A stretch of DNA of 43,834 nt from a virus (UHGV-0214218), one strand, 5' to 3'; shown: positions 3,422-42,441, numbered from the stretch's first letter. The notes: generated from the letters alone by a model not told the origin. Program-made: numbers and translations.

Positions 3422-3631
3422 GATTTGCCAGCTATTTGCCAGCTATTTGCCATGTATAAGTTACTGATTTTTAACTATTTTACCTAATTCCCTATTTGAC
3501 ACGGCTCTAAAAGACATTTGATGACCGGGAATAAAAATTAGAAGCCACCCGTGGCAAATAGGGCAAATAGAAAATAGAAAAAAACAAAAGCAAAAACAGA
3601 AACTTAGAAACAAACAAGTCTGGCAAATAAG
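3422..3631. repeat. iteron-like cluster: three tandem GCTATTTGCCA units (period 11, 3422-3452) plus a degenerate copy at 3491, facing three TGGCAAATAG units in the opposite orientation (3551-3631) and four AAAATAGA repeats
   Basis: Repeats read directly from the sequence. The region is non-coding in all frames and AT-rich, and lies next to the primase operon. Confidence 0.55.
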
Positions 3632-3673
3632 AAGAAAATAGAGAAAATAGAAAACATAAAATAAATCACAAAT

Positions 3674-3702
3674 AACCAGCTTAACTGCTGGTTTTCGTTT
3701 TT
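3674..3702 (+). terminator. rho-independent terminator (AACCAGC-TTAACT-GCTGGTT followed by TTCGTTTTT)
   Basis: 7-bp stem with a 6-nt loop and a T-rich tail, inside the non-coding origin-like region. Confidence 0.5.
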
Positions 3703-33163: not shown

Positions 33164-36961
<3,798 letters not shown>

Positions 36962-36964
<3 letters not shown>

Positions 36965-36970
36965 TACAAT
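36962..36970 (+). promoter_or_regulatory. extended -10 TGATACAAT upstream of the tail fibre gene
   Basis: CGTGATACAAT overlaps the stop of the J-like gene. AAAGGAG RBS and the ATG at 37004 follow. Confidence 0.4.
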
Positions 36971-37003
36971 ATACATCAAATTCACAAAGGAGCATTTATT
37001 ATA

Positions 37004-38839
37004 ATGGCTACCACCCCAACTAATAAACCAATTCCGTCAGAAGACCCTCGCGACCTTAAATTTAATGCTGGGAAAATTGACGAGGTAGTGACATCTGAAT
37101 CGCATTACTATACCGATCGTTTCGGTGTGCGCCGCTGGACTATTGCTGGATTCCAATACACCGCAGAAGAAGCGATTCGCAACTATGGCTATATCACAAT
37201 GGATAGCTTCGAAGATGGGGCGACACTGACACTACCAAATCAGGTTTTGCGATATGAGGCTACTGGCGAATATTACCGCTGGGATGGCGATCTGCCAAAA
37301 ACAGTGCCTGCTGGTTCAACTCCAGATAGTACTGGCGGTGTTAAATTAGGAGCATGGGTTAGTGTTGGTGATGCATCACTGCGTCAGCAACTCTCTAGTA
37401 AACTAGGGTCGCTGATGGTAGGTTTTTCTCGCGTTGATGATGTTCCTCGCACTGTAGGAGATAAGCTAAAAGACGTCCCAACAGCCAATGACTATATGCT
37501 ACCGTCTGAGACGAATCTAACACTCGCAATTAACCGTGCTGCTGCTGACGGTGTCAAATCACTGTTCGTGACGAGCGACCGCTCCTACAACATATCGTCG
37601 ATTATGGAACTACCTGACGATTTCGAGCTGCTTGGTTATGGCCGCCCGTCTGTCGTTTGCGCGGACATTGCCAGCATTATCAGGATGAATTCTCGGACGA
37701 CCGTTTCTGGGCTCAAGTTTACTGGCTTATCACCTGCCGTCCTTTCTCCGCACAACGGAGCTGTGGATGTTTGTATATCTGGTAACTTTTTCACTGGGCA
37801 AAACCAAATTGTGCTATTGCTGACATGTTCAGATGTGACCGTGGCCAACAATGTGTTTGATGGTACAGGGTACGGTATTATACAGCAGGCTGGATATGCT
37901 AGTAATAATGTTCGCGTAGTTAGTAATAACGCCAGAAATATGAAATTTGACTTTGTTGAAGCTAACTCTGCATCTATTGGCACCAGATCGTGGCAGATTT
38001 TGTCTAATATATACGACGGGGCTGATAACTGGAACTCTCTAGCTACGGAACAAAGATTCGTTGGAATCACTGAGCTTGAAGACGTCACCATCTCAAACAA
38101 CTTAGTTCGAAGGACTGCTGGCGATAGCGCGATCCATCTTGAAGATTTGCTTGGTCGTACAACTATATCTGATAACTTTTTTGTTGATTCTTTTGCTGGT
38201 GAAGGTTGCATATACAACCTTTCATCTGACGATGATATGCTGGTGTGTGGGAATTGGTTTGTTATGACTGACGACTACACCGGAGTTAACACTACAGCAA
38301 TACGTACAGATTCTAGAGAATACACACATCGATGCAAAATAAGCTCTAATATATTTTTCGATGCGACTTCTATTGGTAAAAAGCTCAGACCTGTCTTTCT
38401 TGCATATGGTGGGACGTTCGATTACGAAGACAATCTATGTGTAAACACTTTCGATATTGCTAGGTTTGCCTCCATTAACACACCCCGGTTCTCCAGAAAC
38501 AGAGGCGTTGGTCAGCTCCAGCGCGGGATATGGGCGGATGTCGGTTCAACAGGAACCTCCGGGTCTGGAGCTATCTATGACGGAAATATAATACCATCCC
38601 TGGTAGAGACTGATTACGGCATCCGAGCAACTACGAACTCCCAGGGTACTGGCGGACCTAAACGTCATGTTGCATACAATAACCATATCGGGGGGGATAT
38701 TAGGTTAGAAGATCCTAATGGGAATCCAGGTCAAACAGCTGAAAATGCAGCGTGGGGTAACAGGGTTACAGGGGAGATAGTTGTCACCAATCGGATAACC
38801 GCTGACTCATTTGGTAATTACAGTGTCACTGCGATTTAA
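37004..38839 (+). CDS. tail fibre / tailspike with right-handed parallel beta-helix (pectate-lyase-like) domain
   Basis: 611 aa. The N-terminal roughly 150 aa form an adaptor-like region. Repeated beta-helix rungs (ISNNLVRRTAGDSAIHLE, CGNWFVMTDD). A strong terminator follows. Confidence 0.65.
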   Translation: MATTPTNKPIPSEDPRDLKFNAGKIDEVVTSESHYYTDRFGVRRWTIAGFQYTAEEAIRNYGYITMDSFEDGATLTLPNQVLRYEATGEYYRWDGDLPKTVPAGSTPDSTGGVKLGAWVSVGDASLRQQLSSKLGSLMVGFSRVDDVPRTVGDKLKDVPTANDYMLPSETNLTLAINRAAADGVKSLFVTSDRSYNISSIMELPDDFELLGYGRPSVVCADIASIIRMNSRTTVSGLKFTGLSPAVLSPHNGAVDVCISGNFFTGQNQIVLLLTCSDVTVANNVFDGTGYGIIQQAGYASNNVRVVSNNARNMKFDFVEANSASIGTRSWQILSNIYDGADNWNSLATEQRFVGITELEDVTISNNLVRRTAGDSAIHLEDLLGRTTISDNFFVDSFAGEGCIYNLSSDDDMLVCGNWFVMTDDYTGVNTTAIRTDSREYTHRCKISSNIFFDATSIGKKLRPVFLAYGGTFDYEDNLCVNTFDIARFASINTPRFSRNRGVGQLQRGIWADVGSTGTSGSGAIYDGNIIPSLVETDYGIRATTNSQGTGGPKRHVAYNNHIGGDIRLEDPNGNPGQTAENAAWGNRVTGEIVVTNRITADSFGNYSVTAI

Positions 38840-38844
38840 AATAT

Positions 38845-38876
38845 AAGCCCCTCAATCGAGGGGCTTTTTCGTTTTG
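38845..38876 (+). terminator. rho-independent terminator (AGCCCCTC-AATC-GAGGGGCT followed by TTTTCGTTTTG)
   Basis: 8-bp GC stem followed by a T-run. Confidence 0.8.
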
Positions 38877-39021
38877 CAGTATTCCATCAGCTTTACCTTC
38901 AACACAAACACCTCCTGCTGCCGGGAGACATCGTGGTATTTCCCTGGTCTATGACGTCAACTACGACTACTGGTGTGTTGTTGGCATGTCTACATCTGAC
39001 GAGTTGAGTGCTTAATCACGA

Positions 39022-39050
39022 AAAACCCCGCTTCTGCGGGGTTAGTTTTA
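39022..39050. terminator. bidirectional terminator (AACCCCGC-TTCT-GCGGGGTT) ending the leftward helicase/nuclease operon
   Basis: A5 upstream and TTAGTTTTA downstream. Lies 3 nt from the TGA that closes the SSB-tail-like extension. Confidence 0.75.
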
Positions 39051-39056
39051 TCATCA

Positions 39057-39170
39057 GAATGGTATTGAATCATCAAAGTCCATCGGCGGCTCACCTCCTC
39101 CTTGTGGGCTTTGTTGTTTTGGTGGCTGTTGTTGTCTTTGTGACTGCTGGCCTGATTGCTGGCGTGGTTG
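39057..39170 (-). other. 38-codon in-frame extension downstream of the VRR-NUC TAG stop: QPRQQSGQQSQRQQQPPKQQSPQGGGEPPMDFDDSIPF (SSB C-terminal linker plus acidic tip mimic), terminated by TGA at 39054-39056
   Basis: Triplet-by-triplet translation of the - strand in the frame of the VRR-NUC gene. There is no stop between the TAG (complement of 39171-39173) and the TGA (complement of 39054-39056). Confidence 0.5.
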
Positions 39171-39638
39171 CTAAAAACCATCAAATATCAATGGCTCTGA
39201 TGGTTTTTTATAGTTTGGGTAATTTATTGCTCTCCAGTCGTTAAATGCCATCATTGCAGCTTCCCAACCAAGGCATACACACGCGAAGGAACCTAATTCT
39301 TTTGCCGCCTTTAGGTATGCCATTTGACCGGGCTGCCATTTTGATAAAGTATGATCCATTCTTTTCATCTCCATAACGAATGATTGCTTTCCTATGATGA
39401 TGATGTCTGACGCCCCGAAGTTTAGCGCGCCTTTTTTCTTCAGGTTTTCAACTTCATACCCTTTACGCTTTCCTTCATTTGGCACATGAATCATAACTCT
39501 TGCAAAGTCAGGATATAGCTTCCTTATCTGATTAACAAAAGTCTCCAGGTCAGCATCTTCTGACGGGCACTTTTTGTTTCTGTAATCTAAATCACCATAT
39601 ACCTTAACGCCTTCTGGAAAAATCATAATACCCCCCAA
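39171..39638 (-). CDS. VRR-NUC domain nuclease
   Basis: Motif pattern IHVPNEGKRKG...GASDIIIIG...VMEMKRMD...SKWQPGQ (PD-(D/E)xK type, VRR-NUC family). Confidence 0.8.
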   Translation of the reverse strand: MGGIMIFPEGVKVYGDLDYRNKKCPSEDADLETFVNQIRKLYPDFARVMIHVPNEGKRKGYEVENLKKKGALNFGASDIIIIGKQSFVMEMKRMDHTLSKWQPGQMAYLKAAKELGSFACVCLGWEAAMMAFNDWRAINYPNYKKPSEPLIFDGF

Positions 39639-41488
39639 TACATGCCTTTAACGTTGAAATATTTACTTCCTTTATCTCTTCTGAACATGATCACTGATGG
39701 CGCGACAGCCTCATCTCTTCTTGCTATTGCATCCTCAATTGACATGTCAGATTCACCAAAGCACTTCCCGCAAAACTCTTCCCACTCCTTCTTCATCCAT
39801 TCCTTTTCAGAGTTTGGATTGTAGAACTTGCTAACAAAAAATGGCTTCTGGTCAATAGCAAATTTTACGTGCACCAAATCTTCACCACTTGAAACGTAAT
39901 GCTTCATGATGCTCATCATGGTTACGCTTGATTGCTTTGTTGCATAAGGAGAAGAATCAAGCCTGTCAGCTTCTTCCTTTAGCTTTTGGTTTGGGTCAAT
40001 GATTTCAGCTCCGCAGGATGTGCAGTTTCTTGCCGCTATATCATTTTCAAACCCACAATCAGGACACTCTTTTACCGACCATTTATAAGTACATCTGTGT
40101 ATTTCCCTTAGTGGACCTTGCATAACGTAGTTTTTACATCTTCTGCCAAAATGAGCAGGCATAGGTTTGCTTCCAATTTTTTCACCTGACTTATCAAAAA
40201 TATCAATCATCACCCTGTCACCAGCCAAATCAAGCCAGTAGCCTTCTTTGTCAACTTCCAGATTTTCCGGATTTGGGCGCACGCCAAATTCATTGATAAA
40301 ACCACACAACGGGCATTTTACATCCATTGGTACTGATGGTTTTTTCCTTGTTGCTTTTATTTCTGGAGTGAACAAGTCACCAGTCTCAGAAAAGTGGCGC
40401 TGAATGTTGCCTGCATAATCGCTGACAAGAAAGTCTTCCTTTCCTTCATAAAGACGCGTCCCCCTACCAATTATTTGCTGGTAGAGTCTTGGTGATTCTG
40501 TAGCTCTCATTACTGCTATGTGATCACAATGCGGAACATCAACCCCTACAGTAAGGATATTTTGGTTAACGATGTATTTAACTTTTTGTGCCTTGAAGTC
40601 TGATATTGCCTTGTTGCGATCTGCTGTTGGCATATCACCAAAAACATAACTATAAGAACCGGGAGGAAGTGACTCCATTATCTCCATAGCGTGTTTCTTT
40701 GTGCTGGCAAAAATCATCGTTCCGCGCCGATTAACAGAGCGACGGATAATATCTTCAACAATGCGTGATGTTTTCCTTCCCTTTCCAACCATCGCCTTTT
40801 CAACTGAAGCTGTCGTGTACCGACCTAACTTATCCTTTTCAAGACAAGACGTATCATACTCGTCAAAAACAGGCTCTGTTACTGGAGGCGTAAGGTATCC
40901 GTTTTCGATGAGAAATTTAGCTTCAAGCTCATAAACGACTTTGTCGTAATATGGGTCTATGGCTGTTTCTTCATCTGTAGGACCGTCGAGGTAGTGATCT
41001 TTGTAGATGTATCCAGTTCCAAGTCGGTAAGGCGTAGCGGTCATTCCAATAACGCGCAGTTTTGGATTGCGACGCTTCATCTCATTAATAATAAATTTAA
41101 TGGTTGGCGTTATTCCATCACATTCATCAATAATGACAGCGCCATACTTATCACCAAACATCTCTATTGAGTTCTTTATGGTTACTGGTGAACCAAATAC
41201 TACAGGATGACGCAGGTTCTTTGGTCCAGCCTTTGCACTGAACATGCTGGCTGGTTCTCCTGTAAGAAGATATTTAGCGCGATTTTGTGTGACGAGTTCA
41301 GCTGTCGGAGCAATGCACAAAACTCGCTTTTTGCTCATACCATAAATACGAGATGCAAGTTCTGCTACAACCATAGATTTTCCTGCACCTGTAGGGAGGA
41401 TGATAACGCATGATGAGATGGTGCTGCGAATGTGTGCCATAGCTGAATCAACAGCTTCCTGTTGGTATGGCCTTAGTGTGTATTTCAT
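39623..41488 (-). CDS. SF2 DEAD/DEAH-box DNA helicase with C-terminal zinc-ribbon region
   Basis: Walker A PTGAGKS and DECD box (AVIIDECDG). The C-terminal third has CPLCG, CPDCG and CTSCG pairs. Confidence 0.85.
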   Translation of the reverse strand: MKYTLRPYQQEAVDSAMAHIRSTISSCVIILPTGAGKSMVVAELASRIYGMSKKRVLCIAPTAELVTQNRAKYLLTGEPASMFSAKAGPKNLRHPVVFGSPVTIKNSIEMFGDKYGAVIIDECDGITPTIKFIINEMKRRNPKLRVIGMTATPYRLGTGYIYKDHYLDGPTDEETAIDPYYDKVVYELEAKFLIENGYLTPPVTEPVFDEYDTSCLEKDKLGRYTTASVEKAMVGKGRKTSRIVEDIIRRSVNRRGTMIFASTKKHAMEIMESLPPGSYSYVFGDMPTADRNKAISDFKAQKVKYIVNQNILTVGVDVPHCDHIAVMRATESPRLYQQIIGRGTRLYEGKEDFLVSDYAGNIQRHFSETGDLFTPEIKATRKKPSVPMDVKCPLCGFINEFGVRPNPENLEVDKEGYWLDLAGDRVMIDIFDKSGEKIGSKPMPAHFGRRCKNYVMQGPLREIHRCTYKWSVKECPDCGFENDIAARNCTSCGAEIIDPNQKLKEEADRLDSSPYATKQSSVTMMSIMKHYVSSGEDLVHVKFAIDQKPFFVSKFYNPNSEKEWMKKEWEEFCGKCFGESDMSIEDAIARRDEAVAPSVIMFRRDKGSKYFNVKGMYWGVL

Positions 41489-41919: not shown

Positions 41920-42441
41920 TTAAAACGGAATGTCATCATCAAAGTCCATCGGCGGCTCGTTAGATGGCGCTGATTGCTTATGAGCAGGCGCTGCTTTTGT
42001 CTGTTGACGACCGAAAACACCAGCCACATAGTTACCAGTTTTTTGCTTATCCTCAGACTCCCAAACTCGCAGAAGAAGAATCATTGGGCGATTTGCAAGC
42101 GCACTGGCGATAGCAAAATCAGTCGGCTCTTTCCCTGATGCCATCAGCTTACCACCAGCGTTTGCGTCAATTGCTGCAAGCATAGTGATAGCATTGTCGC
42201 GCTGCTTTTCTTTTGAGCTAAATACTTTCAGCTTCTGGAAGATGATGCGATTTTTATACTCACCCTCAAGGATTCGCCACTTAAGATTGAAGAATCGCTC
42301 ACCTTCCCACTGATCGTCTTTACATTCTTCAACTGCAGCAAGAACGCGACTGCCATCAGGAATTACTTCGAAACCACCACCCAGTTCAAATTCAGATTTA
42401 GATTCAACAGCTTTACCGTCAGAAAGATTCCAGAAACCCAT
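41920..42441 (-). CDS. SSB-like protein: divergent N-terminal domain joined to an E. coli-SSB-type C-terminal tail (…KQSAPSNEPPMDFDDDIPF)
   Basis: The last 19 residues (…QSAPSNEPPMDFDDDIPF) match the E. coli SSB C-terminus. ATG 42441 is preceded by GAGAGGA. Lies next to the Sak4-like and Gp157-like genes. Confidence 0.6.
   Translation of the reverse strand: MGFWNLSDGKAVESKSEFELGGGFEVIPDGSRVLAAVEECKDDQWEGERFFNLKWRILEGEYKNRIIFQKLKVFSSKEKQRDNAITMLAAIDANAGGKLMASGKEPTDFAIASALANRPMILLLRVWESEDKQKTGNYVAGVFGRQQTKAAPAHKQSAPSNEPPMDFDDDIPF

Follow-up and report, generated by a model that had tools for sequence, protein, structure and literature searches.

The question raised by this locus is whether a nuclease gene that is followed, in frame, by a sequence resembling the C-terminus of a single-strand DNA binding protein (SSB) makes use of that sequence, or whether the sequence is left over from another gene. 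In the virus UHGV-0214218, whose whole analyzed stretch of 43,834 nt is referred to here as the window, the nuclease frame stops at a TAG (c39173..39171) and then continues for 38 sense codons (c39170..39057) up to a TGA (c39056..39054), as an earlier note on this DNA had reported and as the sequence confirms. The 38 codons encode QPRQQSGQQSQRQQQPPKQQSPQGGGEPPMDFDDSIPF, at the end of which lies the acidic tip EPPMDFDDSIPF. The headline of the earlier note was that leaky or supE-dependent readthrough of the TAG would yield a tip-bearing nuclease or a decoy, and its fallback was that the region is the fossil 3' end of a displaced ssb gene. We found strong support for the fallback in DNA-level homology and in synteny with intact ssb genes, and none for the headline, as the stop, the frame, and the presence of the tail all vary among relatives. 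Very probably, the post-stop tail is an untranslated fossil, the ~114 nt with which an OB-fold ssb gene once ended, left at a module boundary.

Organization of the locus

The relevant features of the window are listed below with their coordinates, strand, and supporting evidence. Group A refers to a set of related phages described in the next section.

c43749..42907, minus: Sak4-like AAA_24 ATPase, recombination gene of the putative swapped-in module (domain match)
c42953..42459, minus: Sipho_Gp157, recombination gene of the putative swapped-in module (domain match)
41920..42441, minus: intact SSB of the DUF669 type, 173 aa (PF05037; phrog_9002 "single strand DNA binding protein," E = 2e-69)
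39623..41488, minus: SF2 helicase (ResIII/Helicase_C), part of the putative swapped-in module (26% amino acid identity to the group A helicase)
39174..39626, minus: nuclease CDS (VRR-NUC family), 151 aa, ORF ending in ...PLIFDGF (phrog_824, E = 1e-38)
39171..39173, minus: nuclease stop TAG, the putative module junction (ssb homology starts at its AG; intact ssb genes have CAG, Gln)
39057..39170, minus: putative fossil ssb 3' end, 38 codons for a Gln/Pro-rich linker and the acidic tip EPPMDFDDSIPF (ssb genes annotated in ASO78B, Akira, ZCEC08, S192, and C1 are 85-93% identical at the DNA level in their last ~38 codons)
39048..39056, minus: triple in-frame stop TGA TGA TAA, apparently inherited from ssb (same TGATGATAA after intact ssb genes)
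39021..39043, both strands: bidirectional intrinsic terminator AACCCCGC-AGAA-GCGGGGTT with a minus-strand U-run (G+C-rich stem-loop at 39024-39043)
38872..39015, plus: second putative fossil, a 3' remnant of an earlier tailspike gene, ...PPAAGRHRGISLVYDVNYDYWCVVGMSTSDELSA* (the GZMU_E2010 tailspike gene matches in its last ~100 nt at 88.8% DNA identity)
38845..38866, plus: terminator belonging to the present tailspike cassette (terminator scan)
37004..38839, plus: present tailspike gene (N-terminal ~370 nt shared backbone, the rest a cassette without a close relative)

On the minus strand, the order is Sak4-like AAA_24 ATPase, Sipho_Gp157, DUF669-type SSB, DUF3268, SF2 helicase, nuclease, tail stretch, and terminator. 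The likely start of the nuclease is an ATG at 39626 whose overlap with the helicase stop reads ATGA and which yields a protein of 151 aa, in agreement with the annotation of relatives; we prefer it on these grounds to the TTG at 39638, from which the earlier note had begun the ORF. The TGA that ends the tail, which had been placed 3 nt before the terminator, is the first of three stops, and the hairpin starts 10 nt past it.

Nothing at the locus points to separate expression of the tail. Its upstream sequence is the nuclease CDS, with neither a start codon nor an OB fold, and the acidic D-F-D-D-x-I-P-F motif lies behind a stop codon without an initiation signal of its own. A promoter scan found no sigma-70-like site in 38700-39800 and so gave no hint that the stub has a transcript of its own, and an Rfam search of 38700-39700 returned no match near the gathering score.

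The VRR-NUC label given to the nuclease in the earlier note holds for the family, but not through a direct Pfam match. By itself, the window protein matched no Pfam family and, using phmmer, no entry of the PDB. A profile built from 18 nuclease homologues does reach the phage VRR-NUC whose structure has been solved (4qbl, E = 2.1e-5), with the match extending across the D...ExK core, PF08774 matches four of the 18 members (best E = 6e-5), and D74, E86, and K88, invariant in all 18, align to the 4qbl core in the manner of PD-(D/E)xK nucleases. The protein is predicted to be a VRR-NUC family member, and a nuclease activity is suggested, from sequence, at the family level. Compared to phage VRR-NUC nucleases (PF08774; 4qbl), it has the same size of ~150 aa and the same D...E-x-K core and is likewise encoded just behind an SF2 helicase gene, but it is divergent, and its subgroup adds a C-terminal extension of ~15 aa ending in an invariant Phe.

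Homology of the tail to intact ssb genes

We compared the region to 50,697 phage records using megablast, and the relatives fell into two groups. Group B (Sa179lw, Sf11, ECO111 5-P, YX3973) is laid out like the window. In group A (ASO78B, Akira, ZCEC08, C1/S192), the match is confined to the sequence downstream of the nuclease stop, which in these genomes forms the 3' end of a gene annotated as OB-fold ssb (PF00436); their gene order is helicase, small (VRR-NUC) nuclease, exonuclease, ERF recombinase, OB-fold ssb, and terminator, with a tail-fibre gene converging from the opposite strand. The 150 nt at 39021-39170 match the 3' end of ssb and the terminator of ASO78B with 92.7% identity (E = 1e-53) and those of Akira with 90.6%; DNA identity of the tail and terminator to the ssb 3' ends of Akira, ZCEC08, S192, and C1 was 84-91%. 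The homology begins at the AG of the window TAG, where intact ssb genes read ...GGT CAG CAA CCA CGC..., and, as judged from the terminator and the converging tail-fibre gene, the tail lies where an intact ssb gene ends. The terminator is common to both converging transcription units, is conserved in groups A and B, and is annotated on both strands in ASO78B. The resemblance of the tail to ssb is evidently no chance match.

The tail can also be compared to the E. coli SSB C-terminus (...PPMDFDDDIPF). Its tip EPPMDFDDSIPF is a phage-ssb variant, in which the D-to-S change is also found in intact phage SSBs, but the tail has no OB fold or start of its own, stands behind a stop, and bears no sign of purifying selection in the remnant lineages.

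The similarity between the window and ASO78B changes abruptly on either side of this patch. Positions 35543-37374, covering a tail gene and the N-terminus of the tailspike, are 87% identical at the DNA level, and no similarity to ASO78B was found for 37375-39020, the rest of the tailspike cassette. Beyond 39170, the helicase and nuclease share 26% and 27% amino acid identity, respectively, with their group A counterparts, and group A genomes contain no Sak4, Gp157, or DUF669 genes. This sharp switch, from ~93% DNA identity in the tail to such low protein identity in the module, together with the absence of those three genes from group A, argues that the tail is the edge of the shared backbone. 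A simple deletion of the exonuclease, ERF, and ssb genes from a group A genome was rejected on the same evidence.

In these respects, the tail is similar to the gene fragments known from mosaic junctions of tailed phages, where modules are exchanged by illegitimate or short-homology recombination. The switch from 26-27% amino acid to ~90% DNA identity falls sharply within a gene, the orphan 3' end keeps its original stops and terminator, and a second stub, from a tailspike gene, lies across the same terminator. The window stub differs from the usual fragment in being in frame and flush with the upstream stop, by inheritance as we propose below.

Proposed replacement of the replication module

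We propose that the ancestor of the window had the structural backbone that is common to its sister phages carrying a module of helicase, VRR-NUC, exonuclease, ERF, and OB-fold SSB genes. Its replication/recombination module would have been replaced by one with Sak4, Gp157, DUF669-SSB, DUF3268, helicase, and VRR-NUC genes, the right-hand breakpoint falling in the ssb linker at CAG CAA CCA. After such a swap, the ssb tail, triple stop, and terminator would directly follow the stop codon with which the new nuclease gene ends, and the present role of the stub would be that of the 3' untranslated end of the nuclease transcript, nothing more. That the stub is still recognizable may be a result of its age, as young as that of the surrounding backbone, and of repeated overwriting from the functional ssb genes of co-infecting relatives.

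The window encodes another SSB, and its DUF669-type gene adjoins the Sak4-like ATPase gene as in phage HK620. In HK620, the DUF669 protein encoded beside sak4 is a genuine SSB, and its six C-terminal residues are required for the stimulation of Sak4 (PMC5928155). The window has the same pairing and an SSB-like C-terminal hexapeptide, although the HK620 protein ends in NDYPPF (PMC5928155) and the window protein in DFDDDIPF. The full C-terminus, ...SNEPPMDFDDDIPF, thus has a complete tip with the exact E. coli sequence, and the last ~60 nt of the gene are 91-99% identical to host ssb. We take this protein to be the working SSB that would have made the OB-fold ssb gene dispensable.

Junctions in related phages

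Junctions were gathered from phage records, IMG/VR, metagenomes, and Logan contigs. Most nuclease matches in the metagenomes were distant homologues, with only three close loci of use, and cluster P0001 was found in one place. The close relatives form four subgroups, with counts given as distinct loci.

B1 (window type), 11 loci: stop TAG in 9 and TAA in 2, then 38-40 codons, interrupted in L023 by a further in-frame TAG
B2 (nuclease ~65% identical, mostly Klebsiella phages), 12 loci: stop TGA in 11 and TAA in 1, followed by ATG (ATT in one) and 22-24 codons
B3 (L016, VLCpiS13b), 2 loci: stop TGA in both, tail shifted to the +1 frame, its tip degraded (PPMEDDIPF)
B4 (gmqsjt-1, ECO95), 2 loci: stop TAA in both, no tail, the stop leading straight into the same terminator

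More distant nuclease homologues (130-146 aa; Yersinia P400, Enterobacter ST22, and ~65 IMG/VR loci) have no tail. The junctions read TTT TAG CAA CCA in B1, TTT TGA ATG (A/C)AA CCA in B2, and TTT TGA C CAA CAA CCA in B3. Because all subgroups share the junction at the CAG CAA CCA of ssb, one ancestral junction with small local changes would be the simplest history for all of them, and the in-frame relation of the tail to the nuclease would be inherited from this junction rather than kept by selection.

The tail of B2 is the 3' end of an OB-fold ssb of the Klebsiella-phage type (98.9% identical to VLCpiS13e, including the terminator). The ERF stop of group A is in frame with the ssb start (TTT TAA TAA ATG); the ATG of B2 may be the old ssb start, and its mini-ORF would then be an ssb gene with the OB fold deleted in frame. 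Candidate explanations for the different ssb-type linkers of B1 and B2 at the same junction are short-homology crossovers at CAGCAACCA or independent events.

Two frameshifting sites were considered at these junctions and rejected. A prfB-like +1 shift at TTT TGA in L016 and L201 is unlikely, as no Shine-Dalgarno-like stimulator lies upstream and the tip is degraded, and in the window a -1 slip at G GTT TTT AG would put the ribosome in the wrong frame.

Substitutions in the remnants

We compared the last 22 codons of 28 intact ssb genes and 22 remnants. Variants private to the remnants comprised 3 synonymous and 20 non-synonymous changes (87% non-synonymous, against a neutral expectation of ~80%), and those private to intact genes comprised 5 and 6, respectively; with small samples and kinship ignored, this contrast is marginal (Fisher p = 0.079). 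The private variants behind the stop are thus close to neutral and do not point to purifying selection. Variants common to both classes, in contrast, are almost all synonymous and include the linked tip haplotypes GAT TCA ATA CCC and GAC GAC ATT CCG. These shared variants evidently arose under purifying selection and were exchanged between intact ssb genes and remnants.

Of 27 remnant loci, 13 have an altered, disabled, or lost EPPMDFDDxIPF box, compared to 3 of 63 intact SSBs (p = 4e-6, kinship ignored). The nine-residue acidic tip is intact in most remnants, and the tip-codon variation that remnants share is also present in functional ssb genes. A two-codon deletion (delta-DF, PPMDDDIPF) and a P-to-T change were set aside as marks of remnant decay, as both are also found in intact ssb genes (L219, L105). 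Relaxed selection, as expected of a pseudogene fragment, is seen in the stop of L023, the frameshift of L016 and L201, the loss in L200 and L007, and, in small samples, the private variants. Taken as a whole, the variants suggest that the stub drifts neutrally and is frequently re-imported from functional genes.

The earlier note had named frameshifts or multiple stops among relatives, with no conservation of the tip codons, as findings that would speak against its proposal. The first part was borne out by the frameshifts, extra stop, and losses, but the DFDD[DS]IPF codons are conserved in most remnants.

Recombination at the tip

Exchange at the tip can be seen directly in YX3973 (L022), a phage that has a B1 nuclease 98% identical to that of the window, yet infects Klebsiella. 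Against the B2 phage L029, its nuclease and linker reach 40-70% identity; identity rises to 100% at GAGCCGCCGATG, stays there across the tip, terminator, and spacer, and is 72-98% over the tail-fibre gene. This switch places the crossover of the Klebsiella tail-fibre cassette in the tip-coding patch. Crossovers would land there because the conserved tip codons and the terminator are the only homology on this side of the cassette.

The tail-fibre or tailspike gene on the far side of the terminator differs in every relative. In the window, the former tailspike fossil is flanked by the present tailspike's terminator (38845-38866) on one side and by the shared bidirectional one on the other, and its translation aligns to the C-terminus of the GZMU_E2010 tailspike. 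Both genes that once converged on the shared terminator were apparently replaced, each leaving a 3' stub.

These observations bring up the possibility that second-order selection keeps the stub as a non-coding recombination linker, that is, as the left homology arm for the exchange of tail-fibre or tailspike cassettes with ssb-bearing relatives, thereby changing host range. The similarity switch exactly in the tip of L022 and L029, the synonymous tip haplotypes common to groups A and B, the different tail-fibre gene past the terminator in every relative, and the fossil of the previous tailspike adjoining that terminator are all in keeping with such a role. Crossovers in the sole available homology are, however, expected without any selection for keeping the stub, and gmqsjt-1 and ECO95 keep the terminator alone and still have a tail-fibre cassette. 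The stub (90-93%) also appears no better conserved than would be expected of backbone DNA of the same age (85-87%). We consider selection for a linker improbable and a passive fossil the better account.

Readthrough and independent translation of the tail

That the stub is expressed at a low level, whether by readthrough or by reinitiation or internal initiation, and gives a tip-bearing nuclease or a free SSB-tip peptide acting on host SSB partners, is very unlikely in our view, since neither route is supported by conservation.

Programmed or leaky readthrough, or supE suppression, would produce a minor nuclease isoform with an SSB linker and tip, which could tether the enzyme to SSB partners or compete for them. 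TAG-C and TGA-A are not the strongest terminators in E. coli. The tail is in frame and flush with the nuclease stop in 23 of 25 remnant-bearing loci, all indels inside the tail are multiples of three, and the tip is intact in the window. Against this, the stop is not conserved: it is TAG in 9, TAA in 3 (Sa179lw, Sf11, RSU-F4K5), and TGA in 13 of these 25 loci, the last being typical of the Klebsiella-phage subgroup. L023 would require two readthrough events, the tail is out of frame in L016 and L201, and it is absent from L200 (gmqsjt-1) and L007 (ECO95). In a search of 5.8 billion proteins with the hypothetical readthrough product as the query, none of the 56 nuclease homologues, all 119-152 aa long, was fused to the tail. 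The alignment that the earlier note had proposed as a check therefore yielded TAA and TGA in place of a conserved TAG, and neither a sense codon nor a fused ORF among the 56 homologues. The predominance of non-synonymous changes among the variants private to remnants (87%) is a further argument against a translated extension.

The stop context had been likened to the leaky UAG-CAR-YYA type, and UAG CAA CCA does fit it literally. However, this readthrough context was defined for plant viruses and yeast, not bacteria (PMC3159437), and CAA CCA are the Gln-Pro codons of the ssb linker, identical inside intact ssb genes. The likeness to the Q-beta coat-to-A1 extension at UGA and to the tobamoviruses (UAG-CAR-YYA) extends to an in-frame, open extension past a single stop; in those viruses, the identity of the stop and the extension are conserved and required, whereas all three stops are found here and the extension is frameshifted, interrupted, or absent in some relatives. 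Readthrough thus has very little to recommend it as an explanation of the tail.

Translation of the tail alone, as a small SSB-tip peptide that would serve as a decoy for host SSB-interacting proteins, could follow either of two possible routes. In B2, termination and reinitiation at the post-stop ATG, present directly after the stop in 11 of 12 loci, would give MKPSNTSKPPANEPPMDFDDDIPF; in the window, an internal ATG (c39083..39081) behind GGAGGTGA (c39098..39091, 7-nt spacer) would give MDFDDSIPF. The window-private change of AAT to GGT creates this 8-nt match to the Shine-Dalgarno consensus (GGAGGTGA) before the tip Met codon, and the peptide is, except for D to S, the SSB-Ct nonapeptide commonly used in binding studies. 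Such a decoy is nonetheless extremely improbable, as the B2 ATG has no Shine-Dalgarno sequence, is ATT in L031/L210, is absent in B1 and B3, and may be the old ssb start codon; AAGGAGG before the Met codon also occurs in intact ssb genes, where it comes from Gln-Gly-Gly codons, and so did not evolve for initiation; the tail is lost and hence dispensable in L200 and L007; and the substitutions look neutral.

Implications of a probable fossil tail

A readthrough device or an SSB-tip decoy, if true, would be a new phage route into the host SSB interaction hub, but the evidence says otherwise. A fossil at a module boundary would make the feature an ordinary recombination scar, a new instance of the well-known mosaic scars of phages. 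It would also be a clean example of modular exchange, with one breakpoint placed to the nucleotide inside a gene. The ultra-conserved codons of the SSB tip would act as a short patch of homology for tail-fibre, and thus host-range, crossovers among phages of E. coli, Shigella, Salmonella, and Klebsiella. The stub looks functional because it encodes a recognizable protein-interaction motif, and it may serve as a warning to annotators and motif hunters that an interaction motif found perfect and in frame past a stop codon may be no more than a recent scar. In Sf11, the ORF annotated over the tail as gp12 is probably spurious.

Repeated SSB tips and overlapping reading frames

The fossil ssb tail downstream of the nuclease stop and the intact SSB of the window share a 24-nt sequence at their tips. 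The two copies of this perfect direct repeat, GAGCCGCCGATGGACTTTGATGAT, lie 2.9 kb apart at c39092..39069 and c41958..41935 (c, minus strand). Recombination between them could delete the genes for DUF3268, the helicase, and the nuclease, or could lead to gene conversion of either tip by the other. The intact SSB is a DUF669-type, non-OB-fold protein, and a comparison of the last ~60 nt of its gene (window 41920-41980, minus strand) with complete E. coli genomes shows 91-99% identity to the host ssb 3' end in 5425 of 5426. The DUF669-type tip may be a capture from the host ssb or from a host-like ssb.

An AAT to GGT change (Asn to Gly), found in the window alone, creates GGAGGTGA 7 nt 5' of the Met codon of the fossil tip (window c39098..39054), and would thereby provide for a potential 9-codon micro-ORF, MDFDDSIPF. 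Intact ssb genes also carry a weaker AAGGAGG. An ORF of 61-64 aa in another frame overlaps the fossil tail and extends across the terminator hairpin (window c39184..38990; 3520-3702 of the Sf11 locus, L002). Annotated in Sf11 as hypothetical protein gp12, this ORF is probably a spurious gene call.

Replacement of the tailspike gene

The opposite side of the shared bidirectional terminator holds a second gene remnant:

38872-39015, plus strand, 3'-terminal fossil of a former tailspike gene (...AAGRHRGISLVYDVNYDYWCVVGMSTSDELSA*), with 88.8% identity to the corresponding end of the GZMU_E2010 tailspike gene

This stub lies between the terminator of the current tailspike gene and the shared terminator, which therefore has a stub of a replaced gene on each side. 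The shared backbone reaches only ~370 nt into the tailspike gene, and no close DNA relative of the receptor-binding part (window 37375-38839, plus strand) was found among 50,697 phage records.

C-terminal extension of the nuclease

Nucleases of the 151-152-aa subgroup have a C-terminal extension of ~15 aa with an invariant terminal Phe (window c39221..39174; L003:3054-3128 and L116:2984-3058 in related loci), ending in ...LIFDGF, ...IQIDSF, ...TINNF, or ...IIKEF. Similar C-termini (...PTPIEGF, ...QQNIENF) occur in the recombinases encoded upstream of ssb in group-A phages, the sisters with an intact OB-fold ssb. This likeness may reflect a common docking motif or inheritance from the recombinase gene. 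In ECO95 1-6-1 (L007:4075-4530), an in-frame TAG takes the place of the GAG of relatives within the extension, which reads ...NYPKQN*PSSPITISHF*, and metagenome contig L119 (115-560) has a 1-nt deletion in an A-run close to the nuclease 3' end. Both are either errors of assembly or signs that truncation of the extension is tolerated.

SSB tips in other phages

Sashavirus BDX09P1 (L009:~3560-3620) has an in-frame TAG (AGC TAG CAA GGA) 16 codons from the end of an otherwise intact group-A ssb. This stop would strip the tip from the functional SSB and may be either a true truncation or an artefact of sequencing. In two PHROG families of unknown function, phrog_2544 and phrog_4477 (362 and 393 aa), the match to SSB tails is confined to the extreme C-terminus, suggesting that translated SSB-like tips do occur on some phage proteins other than SSBs.
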